Shown here: positions 5,527 to 59,956 of the stretch, piece by piece
Numbering within the stretch: position 1 is the first letter of the stretch
How the letters are laid out: each line of letters opens with the position of its first letter
IMG/VR virus record: IMGVR_UViG_3300032283_000554
Span: 18,552 to 82,551 of that record
Strand: one strand, 5' to 3'
DNA length: 64,000 nt
From: a virus
Taxonomy: Duplodnaviria; Caudoviricetes
Made by a program: the position numbers and the translations under genes
Notes under the pieces: model-generated
What the model saw: the letters and a program-made list of their open reading frames with translations, nothing else
Told to the model about the DNA's origin: nothing
Database searches by the model: none

Positions 5527-6288
5527 TTAAACTGCTAGAACGCGGTCAATAATCTTACCGTATTCTGAACCAGCGTGATCTGAGTCACCTGATGGTAGAA
5601 GACGGAATGTTACTGGGAATGTTGTTGCTGCTGTACGAGCCAAAGAGAACTGTGACTGTTCTACAGACAAAACACGACGTGCATAGTATACACGCTCAGT
5701 TGATGATGCTTCTGAAGTTGGAGCCTGTCCAACTGCAATTAGCTGACGCTCTGTTGGAGCTGCACCTAGTGCACCTGCTTCCAAACCTAGTGTGTCAACT
5801 GCTGTTGCACCTGTTCCTGATGATGTAAGTGTTGATCCCTTTTGACCAAATACTGCAAGAACGTTCTCTAGAGTACCTTCTGCCATTTCTGTTGAGATCT
5901 GAACCATCATTGCAGACTTAAACAGCTTAGCTGTATCTAGCAACTGATCAACAGTTACTGAGTCAAATGTTGGCTGGTAGCTGATCTGTAGACCGTTATT
6001 TGTGTAACCAACGTTACGGTAAGCTCCACCAATTGCTGGTGATGCCTCTGTAGGCGTTGCTGTCTGAGTAGCACCTGTTGTTGTTAAAACTTTGTTTAGT
6101 GTTGTAGTATAAGACTCTCCTGATGAGAATGCTGGTACAAAACGATTCTTTGATGCAACGAAAGCGTTTGCGTTGCCTGCATCCATGCTTGAATCATAAC
6201 CAGATACTGTTGAATCTTCTACTGACAAAAATAGTGGTGATGCGCCTACGAGAATATTCTTAGCGTCACCTGTGTTTTGATATGCCAT
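5527..6288 (-). CDS. Major tail (tube) protein
   Basis: NILVGASPLF...YRNVGYTNNGLQISYQPTFDSVTVDQLLD...FPVTFRLLP; AGGAGG RBS before the ATG at 6288; synteny. Confidence 0.85.
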   Translation of the reverse strand: MAYQNTGDAKNILVGASPLFLSVEDSTVSGYDSSMDAGNANAFVASKNRFVPAFSSGESYTTTLNKVLTTTGATQTATPTEASPAIGGAYRNVGYTNNGLQISYQPTFDSVTVDQLLDTAKLFKSAMMVQISTEMAEGTLENVLAVFGQKGSTLTSSGTGATAVDTLGLEAGALGAAPTERQLIAVGQAPTSEASSTERVYYARRVLSVEQSQFSLARTAATTFPVTFRLLPSGDSDHAGSEYGKIIDRVLAV

Positions 6289-18383: not shown

Positions 18384-19126
18384 TTGTCGTTCTCCTCTAT
18401 TTTATATTTATTTCCATCTAGATCTATTCGGTATCCTTCTTTTAATGCATCTTGCCATTCTGACTTTATAACTTCCTGCTCTTCTCTAATTTTTTTCATT
18501 TCTGCATCCCAAGCGTCTATTGTTTCTTGTGGATATGATTCTGGTGACCGATCATCCCAAAATGAACCTAGAGTGTATCTTATTCCAGAAGTTATCATTG
18601 TAACCTCATGAGTATTATCAAAGCCACCTGCAAAAGATGTAAGTGTGCCAGTCTCTGGAACTAGTGTATGGTTTTGTTTATTAAATATTAGATTGCCACC
18701 TTCAAAATCATCATTTAGATACAAGAAAGCTGCGTATCTACTTCTTTCAAACGGGCCTGTGTTTCCCTGTAAGTCTGTATTATCTGAGTGTTCTTTTGCG
18801 TAAGCTCCAGGCTCCCATTTTTGAGCATGAAATCCAATCTTGTGAATATCTGAAGAAGGCTTGTTGTGTACCTCAGCAACTGCATCAATAATCTTATTTT
18901 GAAGTGTAGAGAAAAAATCTGAAGCTAAACCAAATTGTTCTAGCTCCTCGTCACCGTCTTGTGGCAAGACAGAAGAGTATGATTCGTAAAAAGTGATTGG
19001 AGTCCATGACAATTTTTCATTTGCAACTTGAGCCTCTAAAACTTTTATTATTGCAGAAGATTCTTCTTTTGTTAAAAAGTTTTTAAATACTAAAATATCT
19101 GCTGTTAATCTTTCTGAAGTACTCAT
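18380..19126 (-). CDS. 2OG-Fe(II) oxygenase (prolyl-4-hydroxylase-like)
   Basis: HSD...LYLNDDFEGGNL...HEV...RY. Confidence 0.85.
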   Translation of the reverse strand: MSTSERLTADILVFKNFLTKEESSAIIKVLEAQVANEKLSWTPITFYESYSSVLPQDGDEELEQFGLASDFFSTLQNKIIDAVAEVHNKPSSDIHKIGFHAQKWEPGAYAKEHSDNTDLQGNTGPFERSRYAAFLYLNDDFEGGNLIFNKQNHTLVPETGTLTSFAGGFDNTHEVTMITSGIRYTLGSFWDDRSPESYPQETIDAWDAEMKKIREEQEVIKSEWQDALKEGYRIDLDGNKYKIEENDK

Positions 19127-38217: not shown

Positions 38218-38345
38218 CAATTAGGCCTAGATATTAAAAAATAGGAAGATCGATATAACAAGAAAGCAAAGTGCAATAAATCTGATCTTCTTTTTTCTTG
38301 GCCATTCATCTGGCACTCTTACTTGATCCATATTCTACTCCTTTG

Positions 38346-38420
38346 TAGGCCTATTGGGATTTGAACCCAAAGTCGATTGCATATAAGACAATTGCTTTAA
38401 CCAGATTAAGCTATAGGCCC
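38346..38420 (-). tRNA. tRNA-Ile(UAU)
   Basis: GGGCCTA/TAGGCCT acceptor; anticodon arm attgt-CTTATAT-gcaat; GGTTCAAATCC T-arm; no encoded CCA. Confidence 0.85.
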
Positions 38421-39272: not shown

Positions 39273-39381
39273 TGTGACTAAGGTCACAAAAATACTTTTG
39301 CGACACACCCCCCTAACCTCCCCAATTTGTCAGACCCCCATGCTACAATTACAGAATAACAACAACGAAAGGTCAGAATAA

Positions 39382-40020: not shown

Positions 40021-40399
40021 TGAATAGACTACTAACTACTCTAGTGCAATTAGCCCTTATCGTTCCCGCCCTTATCATGGGGCGCATGATGTGGCGCGAG
40101 ATCGTAGCCGACTATAGAGAGTGGGCTAACTCACACTAGCCTAACGGCGTGTCGGCTTGACATTGTCAAGCTGGCCCGCAAAAGAGCGGGGTTATCCACA
40201 GGGTTACGGGGGTTATCCACAACCCCCAGGATTTGCAAGCACGACACGCCCGAGATCCGTGTGAGTTTTATCACATGACTTGAGCGTCTCACATCATGGA
40301 CTTACTCGCTAGTAGTTATCTTTTGTCAGTGGTATCGGCTATAATTGCGGTATAACGAAAAACAGGCGGTAAAGAAATCCGCTACGAAAGGTGGTCGAA

Positions 40400-41190: not shown

Positions 41191-41529
41191 TGGAAAAAGA
41201 TATTTTTGGTTTTGCAGATGCAATTGAAATTGAATTGATCAATGAAGAAAATTTAAAAATTGTTGAATTAATTTTTAAAGATTTTAAATAAATAAATCGT
41301 GGCGGTTCGACATTGTCGAGCTGGCCCGCAATATTGCGGGGTTATCCACAGGGTTACGGGGGTTATCCACAACCCCCAGGATTTCCGACACGCCCGACAC
41401 GCCCGAGATTTTGTGATTTTTATCACACGGCTTGAGCGTCTCAAAATGTGGAATTACTGGCTAGTAATTATCTTTTGTCAGTGCTATCCGCTATAATTGC
41501 TACTATCAACAAACGAAAGGTGACAACTA

Positions 41530-41742
41530 ATGTCAGCAAATGTCTATACAATAGAAAGCCTACTTGTAGGAAAAACTTATCACTCACGCACTTTAACAGG
41601 CGAAATTATTGACGCAGAAAAGTCTGATGTCTTTTATGGCAGAGGCTTAGAAAGTTATCGGGTTCAGGTTCGCCCACACTATCCCTCAGTATTTAATCTA
41701 AAAGATACTTATCGCTATCTATCAGTTAAGGTCGGTGACTAA
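41530..41742 (+). CDS. Small hypothetical protein (SH3-like size)
   Basis: First gene after the cassette at about 41300. Confidence 0.65.
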   Translation: MSANVYTIESLLVGKTYHSRTLTGEIIDAEKSDVFYGRGLESYRVQVRPHYPSVFNLKDTYRYLSVKVGD

Positions 41743-42606: not shown

Positions 42607-42979
42607 AGTAAAGCGAATTCAGGAATTGCGTCGCAGTAATGCGGCGCAACCTGTTCGCAATAAGAAAAAATATTTTCGCAAGATCAAGCACAAAAATAAA
42701 ATTGCAGAGTAATGCATAGTTATGCAGGCCCGCAATACTGCGGGGTCGGGCGTGTCGTTACGGGTGTGATTAAAATCACCCTGGATTTTTGTTAAAGCTC
42801 TCGGCGTGTCTTAGATAATGTCAGCCCATTCTGCTATACTTGCCATTCAACTAACGAAAGGCTCATCCCATGGATTTCTATGATGACTACTATGAAACAG
42901 ATATGCTACGCCCTGACGCTAAGTCATGCTATTGCAAGGTCAATTTAATTTGCACTAATTGCGCGGAGAGTTATAACTA

Positions 42980-43702: not shown

Positions 43703-43900
43703 ATTGCAGCGTGTCGGCTTGACAATGTTGAGCTGGCCCGCAATATTGCGGGGTTATCCACAGGGTTACGGTGGTTATCCACAACCCCCTGGAATTTGTG
43801 AGATTAATCACAAAATAAATTAGATAAAGCTTGGGCGTGTTGCATAATTTGTCAGTGGCATAGTCTATAATACTCTTATACCAACAACGAAAGGCAATAA

Positions 43901-44472: not shown

Positions 44473-44655
44473 ATGACAATCAACGACAAGTTGTACCAAG
44501 TAGGGGATTTATTCACTACACTAAAGTCAAAGAAAACAGGTGTGATTAAGGAAATCCACCCACAGGCATCTGGCTCGGTGCGTGTGCTACTAGAAATGCC
44601 AACGAAAGAAACTCGTTGGACTTCGGTATCCGCTCAAACGCTACTAGGCGTATAA
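44473..44655 (+). CDS. Small SH3/KOW-like protein
   Basis: YQVGDLF...TGVIKEI...VRVLL; has its own promoter. Confidence 0.55.
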   Translation: MTINDKLYQVGDLFTTLKSKKTGVIKEIHPQASGSVRVLLEMPTKETRWTSVSAQTLLGV

Positions 44656-44748
44656 TCTAAAGGCAGGTGGGTCGCAGAAATGTCAGACCCACCTGCTATA
44701 ATTAAAACTTAATAAACCCACTAAACCCACAACGAAAGAAGGCAACAA

Positions 44749-45496: not shown

Positions 45497-45692
45497 GGAT
45501 CCAACACTGGCTGCATATGCAGCTGGCCCGTATAGCTAAGGGGTTATCCACAGGCTTACGACCACTTGTGGATAACCCCTGGAATTTGTGATAATGATCA
45601 CATCTCAAAATGTGGACATATAGTAACTAATCATAGACAATGTCAGTGGCAGATGTTATACTTATGACTAATCAAACGAAAGGTAAAAAATA

Positions 45693-46746: not shown

Positions 46747-46823
46747 GATCCATTAGCTCAGTTGGTTAGAGCGCTACCCTGTCACGGTAGAGGCCGTCGG
46801 TTCAAGTCCGATATGGGTCGCCA
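46747..46823 (+). tRNA. tRNA-Asp(GUC)
   Basis: GATCCAT/ATGGGTC acceptor, ctacc-CTGTCAC-ggtag anticodon arm, GGTTCAAGTCC, encoded CCA. Confidence 0.92.
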
Positions 46824-46924
46824 AGGCCCGTATAGCTAAGGGGGCAAAAAATGTGTTACGAGTCACAAAAGAAAATCCCTGGAATCTATTGTAAATGTCA
46901 GTGGGCTCCTGTATAATTCTCTTC

Positions 46925-47581
46925 ATGACCAACGAAACCATATCAAGTAAGTATACATTTGTCTGCGATCCAGATGAATGCGATTGTCTAATAGAACTAA
47001 CATCATCTGACGGGTTTGGATTCCCTTCAGGTGTGACCGAACTCACATGCCCGTGTGGTCGCAAGACTACATTAGTGTCAGTGGAGCATGCTACAATTGC
47101 ACCAACAAACCAAACGAAAGAGGAAACAATGGAAACAACAGATACAACAGTATCACCTGCAGTAGAGTACAACCCTGATTTATTGGTTACCTACAAAGTA
47201 ATTAGTGGATACTCAGACCCAACATATGCTACAGACAAAGTCCGCAACATTGAATGGGAACTTCATAACTCCCGAACTAATTCAAAGATTGCTTCAGTCT
47301 TAACAAATAAGATTGCCATGGCTAAGGATGTTCTGTCTGAAGCATATGCTGACTCACTTGACCAAGAAACACTTCAAGCAATTGCTGAAGCGCTAGACAT
47401 TCCTTTAGTTAAAGAGATTGAATGGTCTGCAACTATTGAGGTTAGTGGAACATTAACAATTGATTTGCTTGAAGGTGATGTAGATGTTGAATCAGAAATC
47501 TACGACAATCTTTATGTTGAATCACAGAACGGCAACATTGAAGTAGGAGATGTTGAAGTTACGAATGTTCGTGAGAACTAA
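46925..47581 (+). CDS. Hypothetical protein (N-terminal Cys cluster, acidic C-terminus) with an internal promoter and start at 47129
   Basis: ATG 7 nt after TATAAT; a second promoter plus RBS lies inside the frame. Confidence 0.6.
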   Translation: MTNETISSKYTFVCDPDECDCLIELTSSDGFGFPSGVTELTCPCGRKTTLVSVEHATIAPTNQTKEETMETTDTTVSPAVEYNPDLLVTYKVISGYSDPTYATDKVRNIEWELHNSRTNSKIASVLTNKIAMAKDVLSEAYADSLDQETLQAIAEALDIPLVKEIEWSATIEVSGTLTIDLLEGDVDVESEIYDNLYVESQNGNIEVGDVEVTNVREN

Positions 47582-48129: not shown

Positions 48130-48495
48130 ATGGGAGATAGAGCAAACTTTGGATTCAGAGATTCCAAGGAGAATGTAGTATTTTTATATGGACACTGGGC
48201 TGGCCATAACATGCTAGCCAAGTTAGCAAATGCTGTGCAGGCTGCAGAAACTCGTTGGCAAGATGAGTCATATGCAACACGCATTGCTATATCTAATCTA
48301 ATTGGAGAAGACTGGACTCAGACAACGGGCTGGGGAATTTATGTTAACCAATTAGGAGACAACGAACATAAGGTGCCCGTCATTGATTGGGCTAACCAAA
48401 CCTTTACATTGTATGAAGAGGACCTGAGCACGGTAGTGTTTAGTTCAACATTATCTGCATTTGTAGATAAATACAGTCGACTAGTTATGGTATAA
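48130..48495 (+). CDS. Hypothetical protein
   Basis: MGDRANF...LYGHWAG...DESYATRI. Confidence 0.7.
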   Translation: MGDRANFGFRDSKENVVFLYGHWAGHNMLAKLANAVQAAETRWQDESYATRIAISNLIGEDWTQTTGWGIYVNQLGDNEHKVPVIDWANQTFTLYEEDLSTVVFSSTLSAFVDKYSRLVMV

Positions 48496-48500
48496 TAGTA

Positions 48501-48648
48501 TCAGGACAATGTCCTGGTTTTAATATAGAAATGAAATGGTGCGTCTATTAGTCTACGGGCCAGGCGCTAAGTAAAGCGGTTTATTTCTTTCGTTGGAAAT
48601 CAGCAGCCATATTCATACCCCCCAGCTTTTAGCTGGGGGTTTCTTTTT
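48501..48648 (+). ncRNA. Candidate structured sRNA with anti-RBS loop
   Basis: TGGTATAAT promoter at 48488; multi-stem fold with a UACG tetraloop and a UUUCGUUG loop; terminator at 48617-48648; no ORF. Confidence 0.6.
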
Positions 48649-48823
48649 GCCCGCAAAGACTTGAGGGTAACATATTGTTGTTACGATTGTCAAATATATT
48701 TCCCAGGAATTTGTGTGATCTTGACCACAAAGCTGAATCATGTGGTGTGTATCACACCAATTTGCTATTCCATTTGTCAGTGGTCCATTGTATAATTAGA
48801 ACATATCAACGAAAGGATATAAA

Positions 48824-49558
48824 ATGCCAAATTGGGTATTTAATGGATTAACTATAGAAGGTAATCCTGAGCAAGTAAAATCTCTAATTACACAAATGAA
48901 TAAGCCATTCATCTATTCTATCACTGCAGTAGGTGATTTAGCATATGATGTTAAGCAAACTAAGTTTATTAATCCTATCTTTGCTTTTCATAATATCTAT
49001 AACTATAGAGATGCTGGTATTACTGATGAGGTATATCATGGACAACCTCCTCGTTCCACCGATTTTTCTGAGGCAATGAAGTTTGAGACCAATGACTGGT
49101 ATAACTTTAATGTCCGTGAGTGGGGAACAAAATGGGATGTTGCTGTAGCAGAAGACAATATTTATCCTGACACAACTATTGAAGAAGCCGAGAACGGTGA
49201 GAACTATGTAGTCCATTACAACTTTAACACTGCATGGTCACGACCTCTTGGTGCTATCTCTAAATTATCTGCACAATACCCAACACTACTATTTACTTTA
49301 TCATATGAAGAAGAAACAGGCTGGGGTGGAGAAATGGAATTCCTCCGTGGAGAAGTTATATCAGAATCAGAATACGATAACATGTGCCGTGATTGTGATG
49401 CAACTGACCAAATGGAATACTGCGACAATGATTGCGGTGAAATCTGTAGCAACTGCAACTGGCTTGGCGAGGCAGACCTAGAGGCTGTCGCAATTTGTCA
49501 GACCCATAAGATATACTTAGACACTAAAGTACCCGAATACAGAAAGGCGGAAGCATAA
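48824..49558 (+). CDS. DUF1281/YubB ferredoxin-like domain protein
   Basis: MPNWVFN...DWYNFNVREWGTKWD...FNTAWSRP...YEEETG. Confidence 0.75.
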   Translation: MPNWVFNGLTIEGNPEQVKSLITQMNKPFIYSITAVGDLAYDVKQTKFINPIFAFHNIYNYRDAGITDEVYHGQPPRSTDFSEAMKFETNDWYNFNVREWGTKWDVAVAEDNIYPDTTIEEAENGENYVVHYNFNTAWSRPLGAISKLSAQYPTLLFTLSYEEETGWGGEMEFLRGEVISESEYDNMCRDCDATDQMEYCDNDCGEICSNCNWLGEADLEAVAICQTHKIYLDTKVPEYRKAEA

Positions 49559-50045: not shown

Positions 50046-50252
50046 ATGACTAAGTCATCACACTTCCTGGAATATATGAAGATACATAAGATTAGTTTAG
50101 AACAAGATTTAGAGGATGCTAGAAATAACATCCCTATATCTGAAGATGAATACTTTGAATCAGATAGTTATTACATGGGTGCCATTGATACTATGGAACA
50201 TATTTTGTCAGTGGCCTCTGATATAATGATTGACAACGAAAGGGTATATTAA
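50046..50252 (+). CDS. Small acidic protein
   Basis: AAGGA RBS before the ATG at 50046. Confidence 0.55.
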   Translation: MTKSSHFLEYMKIHKISLEQDLEDARNNIPISEDEYFESDSYYMGAIDTMEHILSVASDIMIDNERVY

Positions 50253-51572: not shown

Positions 51573-51685
51573 CAAACTAAGTGTGGGGATCCTCCTCTCT
51601 GTGGGAAACGGGAAAGGGGAGGGTCCTCGCTTCATTTACAAATGTCAGTGGTCAATGGTATAATCAAAACGAAAGGCGGAACTCA

Positions 51686-56301: not shown

Positions 56302-56439
56302 TTATCTATTGTACCATTTTCTATCTGATTTTCATGGTATTGCATATGAAAGTCTAGCAATTGATGAGTTGTTGCACAAAAACATATTGGGCAATATGTA
56401 ATCCATTGAGACTTATCTGACCATTGTTTAGGCATTAAG

Positions 56440-56510
56440 CTCCAGGTAAAGGAATCGGACCTTTATTATCGGTTTCGGAAACCGCTCTACGACCATTATA
56501 GGAACCTGAA
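56440..56510 (-). tRNA. tRNA-Arg(CCG), atypical
   Basis: TTCAGGT/ACCTGGA acceptor; cggt-TTCCGAA-accg anticodon arm; T-loop TCCGATT instead of TTCGA. Confidence 0.6.
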
Positions 56511-58503: not shown

Positions 58504-59136
58504 TTATACAGCATCTGTGCCAATCGTGTCAATAGATCTTTTATTTATTTCAGGGAATATGTCTATTAGTAAATGAACTCTATCAATATCACTATCATTT
58601 AAAACGGAATGTGGTTTTTGATTGTTTATCTCCCAACACTCCCCCTCCTTCATGTTAAGGGTTTCTCCATTAACTGTGTAAGATACAAGGTCGTTGGTTA
58701 TTATTGGTATGTGAAATCTTCTGACCGCCGACAAATACTCGCCTTTGTCGGTATGTTCAGATACGTCTTTGTTTGCCAAAAGCCTGATTAGCAAAACCCT
58801 ACCAGACACTCCATTACACATTAATTCTAAATCATTTACAATTTTTGAAACAACATCTAGCATGGCAGGATCTTTAACTTCTGAGATAATTTTATCTCCG
58901 AAATTCCAATCAAAGCTGTGGTATTGGATTACAAATGTGTTTGTGTATAGATGAGGATTTCTTCTTTCTGAGTACTTACGATTTTGTCTAAAGTCATAGG
59001 TATTCCATTCATCATTAATTTTCTTTACACTATTTAAAATATCAGATACATCATATTTTTTATAGAATTTAAAATTAAAATCATCTGGCTTTGGTGACAA
59101 AGGCACTTTATCTTTAAAGGAGCTCAATTGTTTCAT
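58504..59136 (-). CDS. Aspartyl/asparaginyl beta-hydroxylase-like 2OG oxygenase
   Basis: HTD...RFHIPIITN...WEINNQKPHSVLN...RVHLLID. Confidence 0.85.
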   Translation of the reverse strand: MKQLSSFKDKVPLSPKPDDFNFKFYKKYDVSDILNSVKKINDEWNTYDFRQNRKYSERRNPHLYTNTFVIQYHSFDWNFGDKIISEVKDPAMLDVVSKIVNDLELMCNGVSGRVLLIRLLANKDVSEHTDKGEYLSAVRRFHIPIITNDLVSYTVNGETLNMKEGECWEINNQKPHSVLNDSDIDRVHLLIDIFPEINKRSIDTIGTDAV

Positions 59137-59956
59137 TATCCTTTACATAGTTATATATAAAATAATCAATATCATTATTTTTTAATATTAAATCTATTTC
59201 TGATTCAGACAAAAGAGAAACCAGGTGCTCGGTTGTAATTCCTTCTTCATTGCCATAACTAAAAATTCCAGCATTAACAATATTGTCTTTATTAAATTCT
59301 ATTTCTACATTATAATTAGCATTAAACCAGTTATTAATATTTTTTTCAAACAGGTCGATTCTATCCAAAGAATTGACTATCTTAAAATCTTTTATTGCCT
59401 TTAATGCATTTTCCTTTGAAGTGTTTGTGTTGTCTATAAACCAACTAAACGCCTCTCCCCTTTTTAAAAATGGGCTCATTAACTCTTCATAATGATTTGT
59501 ATAAAAATCTAATGGGCTAAAGGCTCTAGAATCTGCTGAGTTGCATATAAACCTAGACTGATAATTGTTATGCAATTCGAAGTTAGGGTCTTCAAATAAA
59601 TAGTATCTTAGTTTATCTAAAGGAGACTCTCTCTCTAAATATTCTTTTCTGCTAAAAAGAGCACGGTTGTGTAGAAAGTTAAAATAACTAACCCTGGCCT
59701 CAACTGGGTTTCTTATTATTGTAGCAACATCAATGTCTGGAACAACATCAATAGGATATCTCCCAGCATGCATAGCAGTGTAAACCTTTTTGGCAAAGTT
59801 GTTGTTATTTGGATGATGGGTGCTTATATAATAAGATATATCATTAGCGTCTAATGATCTTTTAATATTCTCAGAAACATACTTACCAGCAGTTTTTGGT
59901 ATATGCAAAAAGTATAGTTGCTTTAGTTCACCTTGTTTATTATCATTTCGTTCCAC
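59114..59956 (-). CDS. Sulfotransferase-family protein
   Basis: FLHIPKTAG (5'-PSB) and IRNPVEARVSYF (3'-PB) motifs. Confidence 0.8.
   Translation of the reverse strand: MERNDNKQGELKQLYFLHIPKTAGKYVSENIKRSLDANDISYYISTHHPNNNNFAKKVYTAMHAGRYPIDVVPDIDVATIIRNPVEARVSYFNFLHNRALFSRKEYLERESPLDKLRYYLFEDPNFELHNNYQSRFICNSADSRAFSPLDFYTNHYEELMSPFLKRGEAFSWFIDNTNTSKENALKAIKDFKIVNSLDRIDLFEKNINNWFNANYNVEIEFNKDNIVNAGIFSYGNEEGITTEHLVSLLSESEIDLILKNNDIDYFIYNYVKDNETIELL

Follow-up and report, generated by a model that had tools for sequence, protein, structure and literature searches.

A candidate small RNA displaying an antisense copy of a shared ribosome-binding leader in actinophage-like freshwater viruses

In the virus record IMGVR_UViG_3300032283_000554 (Duplodnaviria; Caudoviricetes), 328 nt separate an open reading frame (ORF) at 48130–48495 from the ATG (48824) of a 244-aa gene, and this gap, which contains no credible + strand ORF, raises the question of what it encodes. 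Coordinates refer to the window, the whole 64,000-nt stretch of DNA that was analysed (positions 18,552 to 82,551 of the record), which is part of an 82.5-kb IMG/VR virus estimated to be 69% complete. The locus is most likely a small non-coding RNA gene of about 145 nt, consisting of a 5' hairpin, a three-way junction and a terminator. The junction exposes a loop complementary to a standard leader that precedes the start codons of promoter-proximal genes, and it is considered somewhat better than an even chance that the product acts in trans as an anti-leader small RNA (sRNA), masking the Shine-Dalgarno (SD) site of these genes.

The elements that a preliminary description had read from the letters of this region (an extended -10, a 5' hairpin, a closing stem, a UACG hairpin, a loop-bearing stem and a terminator, with no ORF) are all present in the sequence. 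No + strand ORF of at least 25 aa covers the RNA (48488–48648), and the order of elements in the gap is TGGTATAAT, the hairpin at 48500–48518, the three-way junction at 48531–48616 and the terminator at 48619–48648, all on the + strand. The extended -10 promoter-like element TGGTATAAT (48488–48496), which was read directly, overlaps the stop of ORF 48130–48495, and relatives retain TATGGTATAAT even when the coding sequence preceding it is a different one. The element was not picked up by a two-hexamer promoter scan, because it has no -35. A TATAAT-like hexamer precedes the GGUGC of the junction in most, not all, of 79 homologues, with a spacing of 30–43 nt in clades that have the 5' hairpin and 8–11 nt in clades that lack it, which fits a transcript start at the hairpin or at the closing stem P1. 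The hairpin itself (caggaca/tgtcctg, 48500–48518) was recovered by folding and was also listed as terminator-like; its position suggests that it lies at about the expected transcription start, and it may have a second role as terminator of the upstream operon. Although missing from some clades, it shows compensatory changes among relatives in the alignment (GGAC/GUCC, GGCC/GGCC and GGUC/GACC).

The 86-nt junction core (48531–48616) is defined by the covariance model R1 and by pair counts. Its closing stem P1 joins AUGAAAUGG (48531–48539) to CCAUAUUCAU (48607–48616) with one bulge, and encloses P2 (48541–48546/48562–48567), which is extended by P2b (48551–48553/48558–48560) as a GUC-UACG-GGC hairpin, the joining strand J2/3 UAAGUAAA (48568–48575) and P3 (48576–48579/48600–48604). 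Above P3, the apical stem UUUC/GAAA (48584–48587/48596–48599) closes the loop UUUCGUUG (48588–48595), and the 8-nt loop together with the closing C-G pair forms the anti-leader sequence CUUUCGUUGG (48587–48596). The intrinsic terminator (48619–48648), found both by folding and by a terminator scan, comprises a 9-bp GC-rich stem (48619–48639) and a T run; in the window it starts 2 nt after P1, and a separate promoter precedes the next gene. Terminators of differing sequence lie 3' of the RNA in most clades and are absent from several. The minimum free energy fold of 48500–48650 (-49 kcal/mol, z = -3.48, with 1 of 200 shuffles as stable) reproduces the structure drawn in the preliminary description, with unpaired probabilities of 0.5–0.94 in the loop, a range that includes the central bases. 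At the level of sequence, the RNA thus has the transcription unit of its own that marks a trans-encoded sRNA: a promoter-like element, a terminator and no ORF. A further hairpin, GCCCGC...GAGGGU, lies 3' of the terminator; it shows no covariation by eye and was left out of the RNA.

Comparison with related viruses supports the drawn structure. The two flanking proteins led to 160 viral loci (80 anchored on the upstream and 80 on the downstream protein), in 118 of which the RNA region was detected by blastn, and a pattern scan of IMG/VR added at least 120 stretches, including chance matches in unrelated contigs. The RNA is carried by at least 199 of the fetched viral loci, among which 72 distinct RNA sequences occur. 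In a MAFFT alignment of 73 sequences (A1), GGUGC, CUA, the CUUUCG-UGG loop and GC-GCC are invariant. RNAalifold recovered the structure only partly from the raw MAFFT alignment, in which indels misaligned P2b and P3; it was replaced by a hand-drawn structure, the model R1 and realignment, and the pair counts consequently lean towards that structure. R1 finds a single match in the window (89.1 bits, 48531–48616) and 79 matches among 83 sources. After realignment of the 79 homologues, 96.4% of 1660 cells are paired, as against 82.3% in shuffles (none of 500 being as high) and 33–50% in controls with slid partners. The stems covary, with changes on both sides in 11 of 23 pairs and a covariation score of 0.332, compared with 0.119 in shuffles (again reached by 0 of 500) and at most 0.085 with slid partners. 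Compensatory series are visible in the raw alignment as well (GCGUCU/AGGCGC, GCAUCU/AGGUGC, GCGGCU/AGUCGC and GCCCCU/AGGGGU), together with an exchange of U-A and A-U beside the loop.

The sequence to which the loop is complementary, AACGAAAG, is strongly over-represented in the window, with 13 copies against 1.50 expected and 0 of 100 shuffles reaching that number. The + strand has twelve of these copies, and the sole - strand copy is the RNA loop, which is also the only antisense copy in the 82.5-kb record; the first 18.5 kb of the record hold no copy of AACGAAAG at all. The longer form CAACGAAAG occurs 8 times against 0.34 expected, a count likewise reached by 0 of 100 shuffles; the five leader positions given for it in the preliminary description were found as described, and 44600 and 6156 are additional. 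Ten of the 12 + strand copies of AACGAAAG lie 7–11 nt 5' of an ATG and 3' of a TGTCAG-N10-TAnAnT site, the two non-leader copies being at 6157, in the - strand late module, and at 44601, within a small ORF. The ten leaders, all on the + strand, are CAACGAAAGG at 39363–39372 (behind the promoter-like site 39328), 43885–43894 (site 43850), 50234–50243 (site 50206) and 48807–48816; AACGAAAGG at 41512–41520 (site 41476), 42853–42861 (site 42819), 45675–45683 (site 45641, ahead of a DUF932 gene) and 51668–51676 (site 51643); CAACGAAAGAA at 44730–44740 (site 44681), where the 11-nt complement claimed earlier proved real; and AACGAAAG at 47113–47120 (site 47076). The leader at 48807 belongs to the 244-aa gene (ATG 48824) and is the predicted target nearest to the RNA. 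With only 4 nt between the -10 and its first base, the leader at 51668 may be partly untranscribed.

Between the -10 and the motif the spacing ranges from 4 to 30 nt, while between the motif and the ATG it is fixed, which indicates that the motif is part of the ribosome-binding site and not of the promoter. If the 3' end of actinobacterial 16S rRNA is, as we take it to be, CCUCCUUUCU, then the GAAAGG of the leader is a proper SD sequence, and the CUUUC of the loop is a partial mimic of the anti-SD, to which GUUGG is added for specificity. Genes internal to operons have other SD sequences (GGAG, AAGG and GGTGG). The leader is asymmetric, in one orientation, near starts, confined to the non-structural module and extended beyond the SD, as described for start-associated motifs. 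The associated promoter-like sites, TGTCAG-N10-TA(T/C)A(A/C)T, number 15 on the + strand between 39328 and 51643, the one at 41531 lying within a gene, and 10 of the 15 are followed by the leader. In this class, TGTCAG(T/A)(G/C)(G/C)-N-TA(T/C)A(A/C)T, the box is 10 nt 5' of the -10, a spacing too short for a normal -35, and the class is present even in relatives without AACGAAAGG leaders; a phage-encoded activator or sigma-like factor may be required at these promoters. The position of the box would recall activator-dependent promoters rather than support the label 'early' that the preliminary description had attached to these genes. The promoter of the RNA itself has no TGTCAG box. As a separate observation, the ATG of a 228-aa ORF at 46895–47581 overlaps a TGTCAG box, and a promoter-like site with its AACGAAAG leader (47076–47120) lies inside this ORF, which may really be two shorter genes; a trial start at 47130 is out of frame.

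The predicted energies of pairing agree with this distribution. An 11-nt loop probe was scanned for duplexes against 41,264 sequence windows on both strands (mean -3.5, standard deviation 1.9 kcal/mol), and seven of the ten leaders are among the 11 best, at -12.5 to -14.1 kcal/mol, including the leader of the 244-aa gene (-13.1 kcal/mol) and the 11-nt complement at 44730 (-14.1 kcal/mol). The remaining four places among these 11 are taken by the RNA's own complement, a site at 44590 within an ORF and two unrelated sites. The strongest duplex (-16.0 kcal/mol) is formed with CCAACGAAAGAAA at 44590–44602, a 13-nt perfect complement of the loop and apical stem, which lies inside the small ORF 44473–44655 and away from start codons.

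Loop and leaders are also retained together in related viruses while the stems drift, which is what the preliminary description had led one to expect of a functional loop. In loci anchored on the upstream protein, and hence not selected by the loop, CTTTCG[AT]TGG is found in 79 of 80, the remaining one (L045) having CTTTCGTTT; the 80 loci anchored on the downstream protein include 57 canonical copies, 7 divergent or cut homologues and 16 without the RNA, several of the latter being cut loci. The 43 non-redundant RNA-bearing loci (411,419 nt) contain 237 copies of the leader 8-mer in sense and none in antisense outside the RNA, and in 33 of the 43 a leader is located +245 to +302 from the RNA. 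In five relatives with a completeness of 97% or more, the sense copies number 14, 14, 9, 9 and 10 and the antisense copies 1, 2, 1, 1 and 1, respectively, with the RNA-loop copy inside the leader cluster in each. The distant homologues L155 and L160 (53–55 bits) have a larger loop with AUUCCUUUCGUUUGG; in L155 the loop, AUUCCUUUCGUU, is perfectly complementary over 12 nt to the phage's own leader AACGAAAGGAAU, and the two records hold 8 sense copies each and 2 and 1 antisense copies. In one lineage (L158/L159) the loop has moved to another hairpin: the junction RNA (L158 2697–2777) keeps P1, P2 and the terminator, P3 is replaced by a short unrelated hairpin and P2b shows UUCCUUUCG, while the lone antisense copy of the leader is found 2.6 kb away (L158 5323–5365) within the 15-nt loop of an unrelated 14-bp hairpin (z = -2.99). 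The sequence is thus kept while the scaffold has changed, which points to base pairing and not to a role of the junction fold.

Conversely, RNA and leaders are both missing from one relative. This genome, G006 (70.6 kb, 66% complete), has seven TGTCAG sites within 4.6 kb with leaders like ACAAAGGAAAA; its count of the 8-mer is at chance level (2, against 3 in the control), and R1 finds no RNA in it. Four further genomes (G005, G007, G008 and G009) give no R1 match and near-chance leader counts, to which weak weight is attached as these records are 18–47% complete. A candidate for the joint loss of loop and leaders, L147, which has a junction RNA with a truncated P3, was dropped, as its 18.7-kb record contains three sense motifs outside the locus.

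Taken as a mechanism, these features would describe a regulon-wide control of translation. The junction would display its 8-nt loop so that CUUUCGUUGG, with the closing pair, matches the standard leader (C)AACGAAAG(G), which, downstream of each TGTCAG-type promoter that carries it, holds the SD sequence of the first gene; the RNA would pair in trans with the leaders over 8–11 nt at about -12 to -14 kcal/mol, and this pairing would cover the GAAAGG ribosome-binding site and lower the translation of the whole gene class together. Pairing in vivo, its repressive sign and its timing are what we infer from this arrangement, repression being the more likely sign if the RNA is indeed directed against the leaders.

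Several observations weigh against this interpretation. The exact leader is absent at 5 of the 15 TGTCAG sites, and the 3' half of the loop has an unpaired probability of only about 0.5. Whereas seven leaders are among the 11 best duplexes in the phage genome, three leaders with an A before AACG fall outside the 30 best. Base-by-base covariation of loop and leader was not found in the alignment, because both are nearly invariant; the base 5' of CUUUCG does vary (U, A or C), belongs to the apical stem and is not followed by the opposite leader G. The joint presence or absence of loop and leaders rests on few independent cases. The earlier sRNA interpretation is supported in part, insofar as a conserved, promoter-bearing structured RNA carries what is, in most complete relatives, the sole antisense copy of the leader. 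Not every genome needs the RNA: in L113/G010 the RNA is precisely deleted (L113:2820–2835), with GGTG joined to AAAAGACTAAGGGTA, while 10 sense leaders, the promoter and the downstream block are kept and no antisense copy is found in 48.7 kb (45% of the genome). As this deletion reads, the RNA is dispensable at least in L113/G010, or else the variant is defective or of recent origin. Finally, the unpaired junction bases GGUGC, CUA, CCAG, UAAnUAAAGC and AGCAGCC are invariant, and since such a core is superfluous for a plain seed scaffold, it is likely that the RNA also binds a factor or has another activity.

The last point leads to the alternative that the main job of the RNA is performed by the junction core, through protein or ligand binding, catalysis or scaffolding, with the complementarity of the loop secondary or incidental. 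The numerous unpaired positions of the junction and the internal loop that are invariant, the position of the terminator right after P1 in most clades, as in riboswitch-type elements, the conserved block of about 200 bp downstream and a pairing, predicted from A1, that the loop CUUU may form with the AAAG of J2/3 all agree with such a function, which we nevertheless regard as unlikely. The complement is placed exactly in the loop, no second antisense copy exists genome-wide in four of the five complete relatives, and the sequence reappears on another hairpin where the junction RNA has lost it; by our own estimate, the chance that a 150-nt region holds a 9-mer complement of a motif over-represented about 9-fold is about 0.001, and no Rfam riboswitch or ribozyme matches the RNA. 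A role in cis is less probable still. Here, on read-through of the terminator, the loop would pair with the SD leader of the 244-aa gene 220 nt downstream and gate its translation, as might be expected from the presence of a leader 245–302 nt 3' of the RNA in 33 of 43 loci, the conservation of the intergenic region throughout, with alternative inverted repeats, and the lack of a terminator after the RNA in some clades. However, a strong terminator and a separate TGTCAG promoter intervene in most clades, and 10 of the 43 loci (L154, L162, L167, L186, L218, L228, L246, L265, L269 and L281) have no leader in that interval, the leader being closer, further off or past the end of the locus. In L158, moreover, the anti-leader hairpin is 2.3 kb 3' of the start of the 244-aa gene, and a device in cis leaves unexplained why the same leader stands on about ten other operons.

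Little credence is likewise given to a pairing that is real but positive or protective in outcome, in which the RNA would stabilize mRNAs, protect the leaders against nucleases of host or phage, or act as a sponge for a factor recognizing the complement of the leader. The same evidence of complementarity would apply, the sign of an interaction being unreadable from sequence, and the promoter of the RNA, an extended -10 only, is unlike the target promoters, so that either order in time would be possible. Against this, the pairing covers the GAAAGG SD itself, and SD pairing by known base-pairing sRNAs blocks 30S binding. The chance is very slim that the motif is an asymmetric operator read at the DNA level in either orientation, or that the match is accidental. 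Repeated asymmetric DNA sites in one orientation are known from actinophages in the form of the 13-bp L5 stoperators, which PMC3203893 mentions. Yet the motif is spaced to the start codon and not to the promoter, its antisense copy is in the loop of a covarying RNA hairpin, and shuffled sequences never match the observed counts. The anti-leader sRNA, acting in trans on the SD sites, thus remains the interpretation that is carried forward here.

Metatranscriptomic data give weak support to transcription of the RNA region. Contigs from four of four runs (four studies) cover 48511–48617/22, although contigs cannot define ends, and one of them stops in the T run of a relative's terminator. On the other side, other contigs include the promoter and the upstream gene of relatives, so that read-through or DNA is possible. 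The missing contig cover of 48300–48460 (90% likeness) was discarded as an argument, as contigs cannot show absence.

With regard to the host, the capsid maturation protease shares 45–46% identity with its counterparts in 127 records of Streptomyces phages and 9 of Rhodococcus phages, out of 139 matches, and Pfam matches include the mycobacteriophage family GP88, DUF932 and DUF1281_C. These protease and Pfam matches characterize the phages as actinophage-like, and a freshwater actinobacterial host is plausible. A scan of 185,579 species genomes of bacteria and archaea found the RNA only once, on a 3.5-kb contig. Of the four matches in that scan of genome contigs, L282, L284 and L285 were rejected as chance, having no R1 match; L283 is a genuine copy of the RNA (87.4 bits), on a contig binned in a Bacteroidia metagenome-assembled genome, which was rejected as a host clue and is probably a mis-binned phage fragment.

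The RNA does not correspond to any described family in the resources searched. A scan of the window with Rfam 15 at gathering thresholds returned three tRNAs only and no family for the RNA, and an E-value scan of 48400–48900 gave only matches driven by the terminator, the best being NsiR1 (20.4 bits against a gathering threshold of 39); there was no Rfam match to the C4 family or to a known riboswitch or ribozyme, and the divergent homologue L253 gave none at E-values up to 5. ARAGORN reported three tRNAs elsewhere in the window and no tRNA or tmRNA at 48.5 kb. No match was obtained in a DNA search of the phage collection with 48300–49000 or in a protein search with the 244-aa gene. Keyword searches of the literature, supplements being outside their scope, returned no description of such a phage RNA, and the strings AACGAAAGG and CTTTCGTTGG were met there only in primers and unrelated sequences. 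The RNA, as delimited by R1, is a family new to Rfam, the mechanism proposed for it is a variant of antisense control of ribosome-binding sites, and the family is, on these comparisons, found in a large group of freshwater phages of roughly 115 kb whose proteins are actinophage-like.

The DNA around the RNA has features of its own. About 150–200 bp after the RNA terminator (window 48649–48800) are kept in all clades, as a block made up of GCCCGCAAAGAC-TTGAGGGTA, TTACG..TGTCAAATA and the inverted repeats TGTGATCTTGACCACA / ATGTGGTGTG..CACACCA; clades without the terminator have TTGACAAAT 9–12 nt 5' of GGCCCGCAAAA. A GCCCGCAAA box is shared between this block and the region at about 40150–40235, which contains TTGACA-N11-GCCCGCAAAAGAGCGGGG followed by two DnaA-box-like TTATCCACA repeats and may be an origin or a regulatory site. 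The tRNA genes of the window are Ile-TAT (38345–38420, - strand), Asp-GTC (46747–46823, + strand) and Arg-CCG (56439–56510, - strand), of which the Asp gene sits inside the + strand small-gene module.

Parallels to the proposed mechanism exist in both bacteria and phages. RsaE/RoxS and 6C RNA are trans-encoded sRNAs of Gram-positive bacteria that mask ribosome-binding sites by means of an exposed loop. The RNA described here resembles them in being a stand-alone gene with a pyrimidine-rich loop seed directed against several SD sequences, and in the conservation of the seed while the stems drift; it differs in being phage-encoded, in having predicted targets among the phage's own genes and a standardized leader instead of a generic G-rich SD, in its three-way-junction scaffold and in the lack of an Rfam match. 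The phage antisense immunity RNAs c4 (P1/P7) and CI (P4) are likewise small structured phage RNAs with loops directed against repeated sites in phage mRNA, including the ribosome-binding site; unlike the RNA described here, they arise by processing of a longer transcript, and their action is limited to one operon of a temperate phage. The T4 endoribonuclease RegB, a protein that cuts GGAG, is also a phage device that inactivates a temporal class of phage mRNAs through the SD sequence, whereas here an RNA would mask an extended SD.

Cluster K mycobacteriophages have the closest parallel to the leader, the start-associated sequence (SAS), which the available parts of PMC3203893 (Pope et al. 2011) describe as a 13-bp motif located 3–7 bp before 11–19 start codons and extending beyond the SD, leaving open whether its reader is an RNA or a protein. 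In the available parts of papers from 2024 and 2025 (PMC11373665, PMC12699233), its role is still ill-defined. As far as those excerpts describe it, the SAS is like the leader in being short, asymmetric and near the starts of non-structural genes, in occurring in one orientation, in containing an SD core and in being conserved beyond 16S pairing. The leader differs from the SAS in marking promoter-proximal genes only, and GGGATAGGAGCCC (SAS) and AACGAAAGG (leader) are unrelated sequences from unrelated phages, so that the likeness is one of analogy and not of homology.

A lone reverse-oriented SAS site is noted for Anaya, Adephagia, Angelica and CrimD in the same excerpts (PMC3203893). In Anaya, 16 sites are forward and 1 is reversed, the latter located in the 385-bp unannotated gap between gp96 and gp97, where it makes up the 10-nt loop, CCUCCUAUCC, of a hairpin (fold z = -3.99; L286:34850–34900, record 59849–59899). 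This hairpin is conserved and covarying: 133 cluster K records contain the region, and in 9 aligned cluster K phages the stems show compensatory changes, while the loop is kept in 6 and altered in DarthP, Amgine and SirPhilip. DarthP has a canonical SAS despite its altered loop, which makes the link between hairpin and SAS looser in cluster K. The homologous hairpin of Adephagia (58,611–58,713) is in the gap between genes 92 and 93, in which late transcription "appears to initiate", according to the available part of the source. Literature searches (supplements outside their scope) found no paper proposing an anti-SAS RNA. It is tentatively suggested, as a possibility on which we would not insist, that actinophage-like viruses have a translation system of 'address label and reader', in which one class of mRNAs bears a standardized extended leader and a dedicated phage RNA, displaying the exact complement in a hairpin loop, switches all of that class together. 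This might also account for the cluster K SAS, without an explanation since 2011, through a late leader RNA that silences early genes bearing the SAS.

If the pairing is real, the standardized leaders of about ten operons would be under the control of one small RNA, and the phages would possess an RNA-based, regulon-wide control of translation of a kind exerted elsewhere by proteins such as T4 RegA and RegB. The locus in any case defines a new and abundant RNA family that covaries cleanly and occurs in many viral genomes from freshwater. It also offers a candidate for the reader of the SAS in cultured mycobacteriophages, which may be mutated in Mycobacterium smegmatis mc2155.

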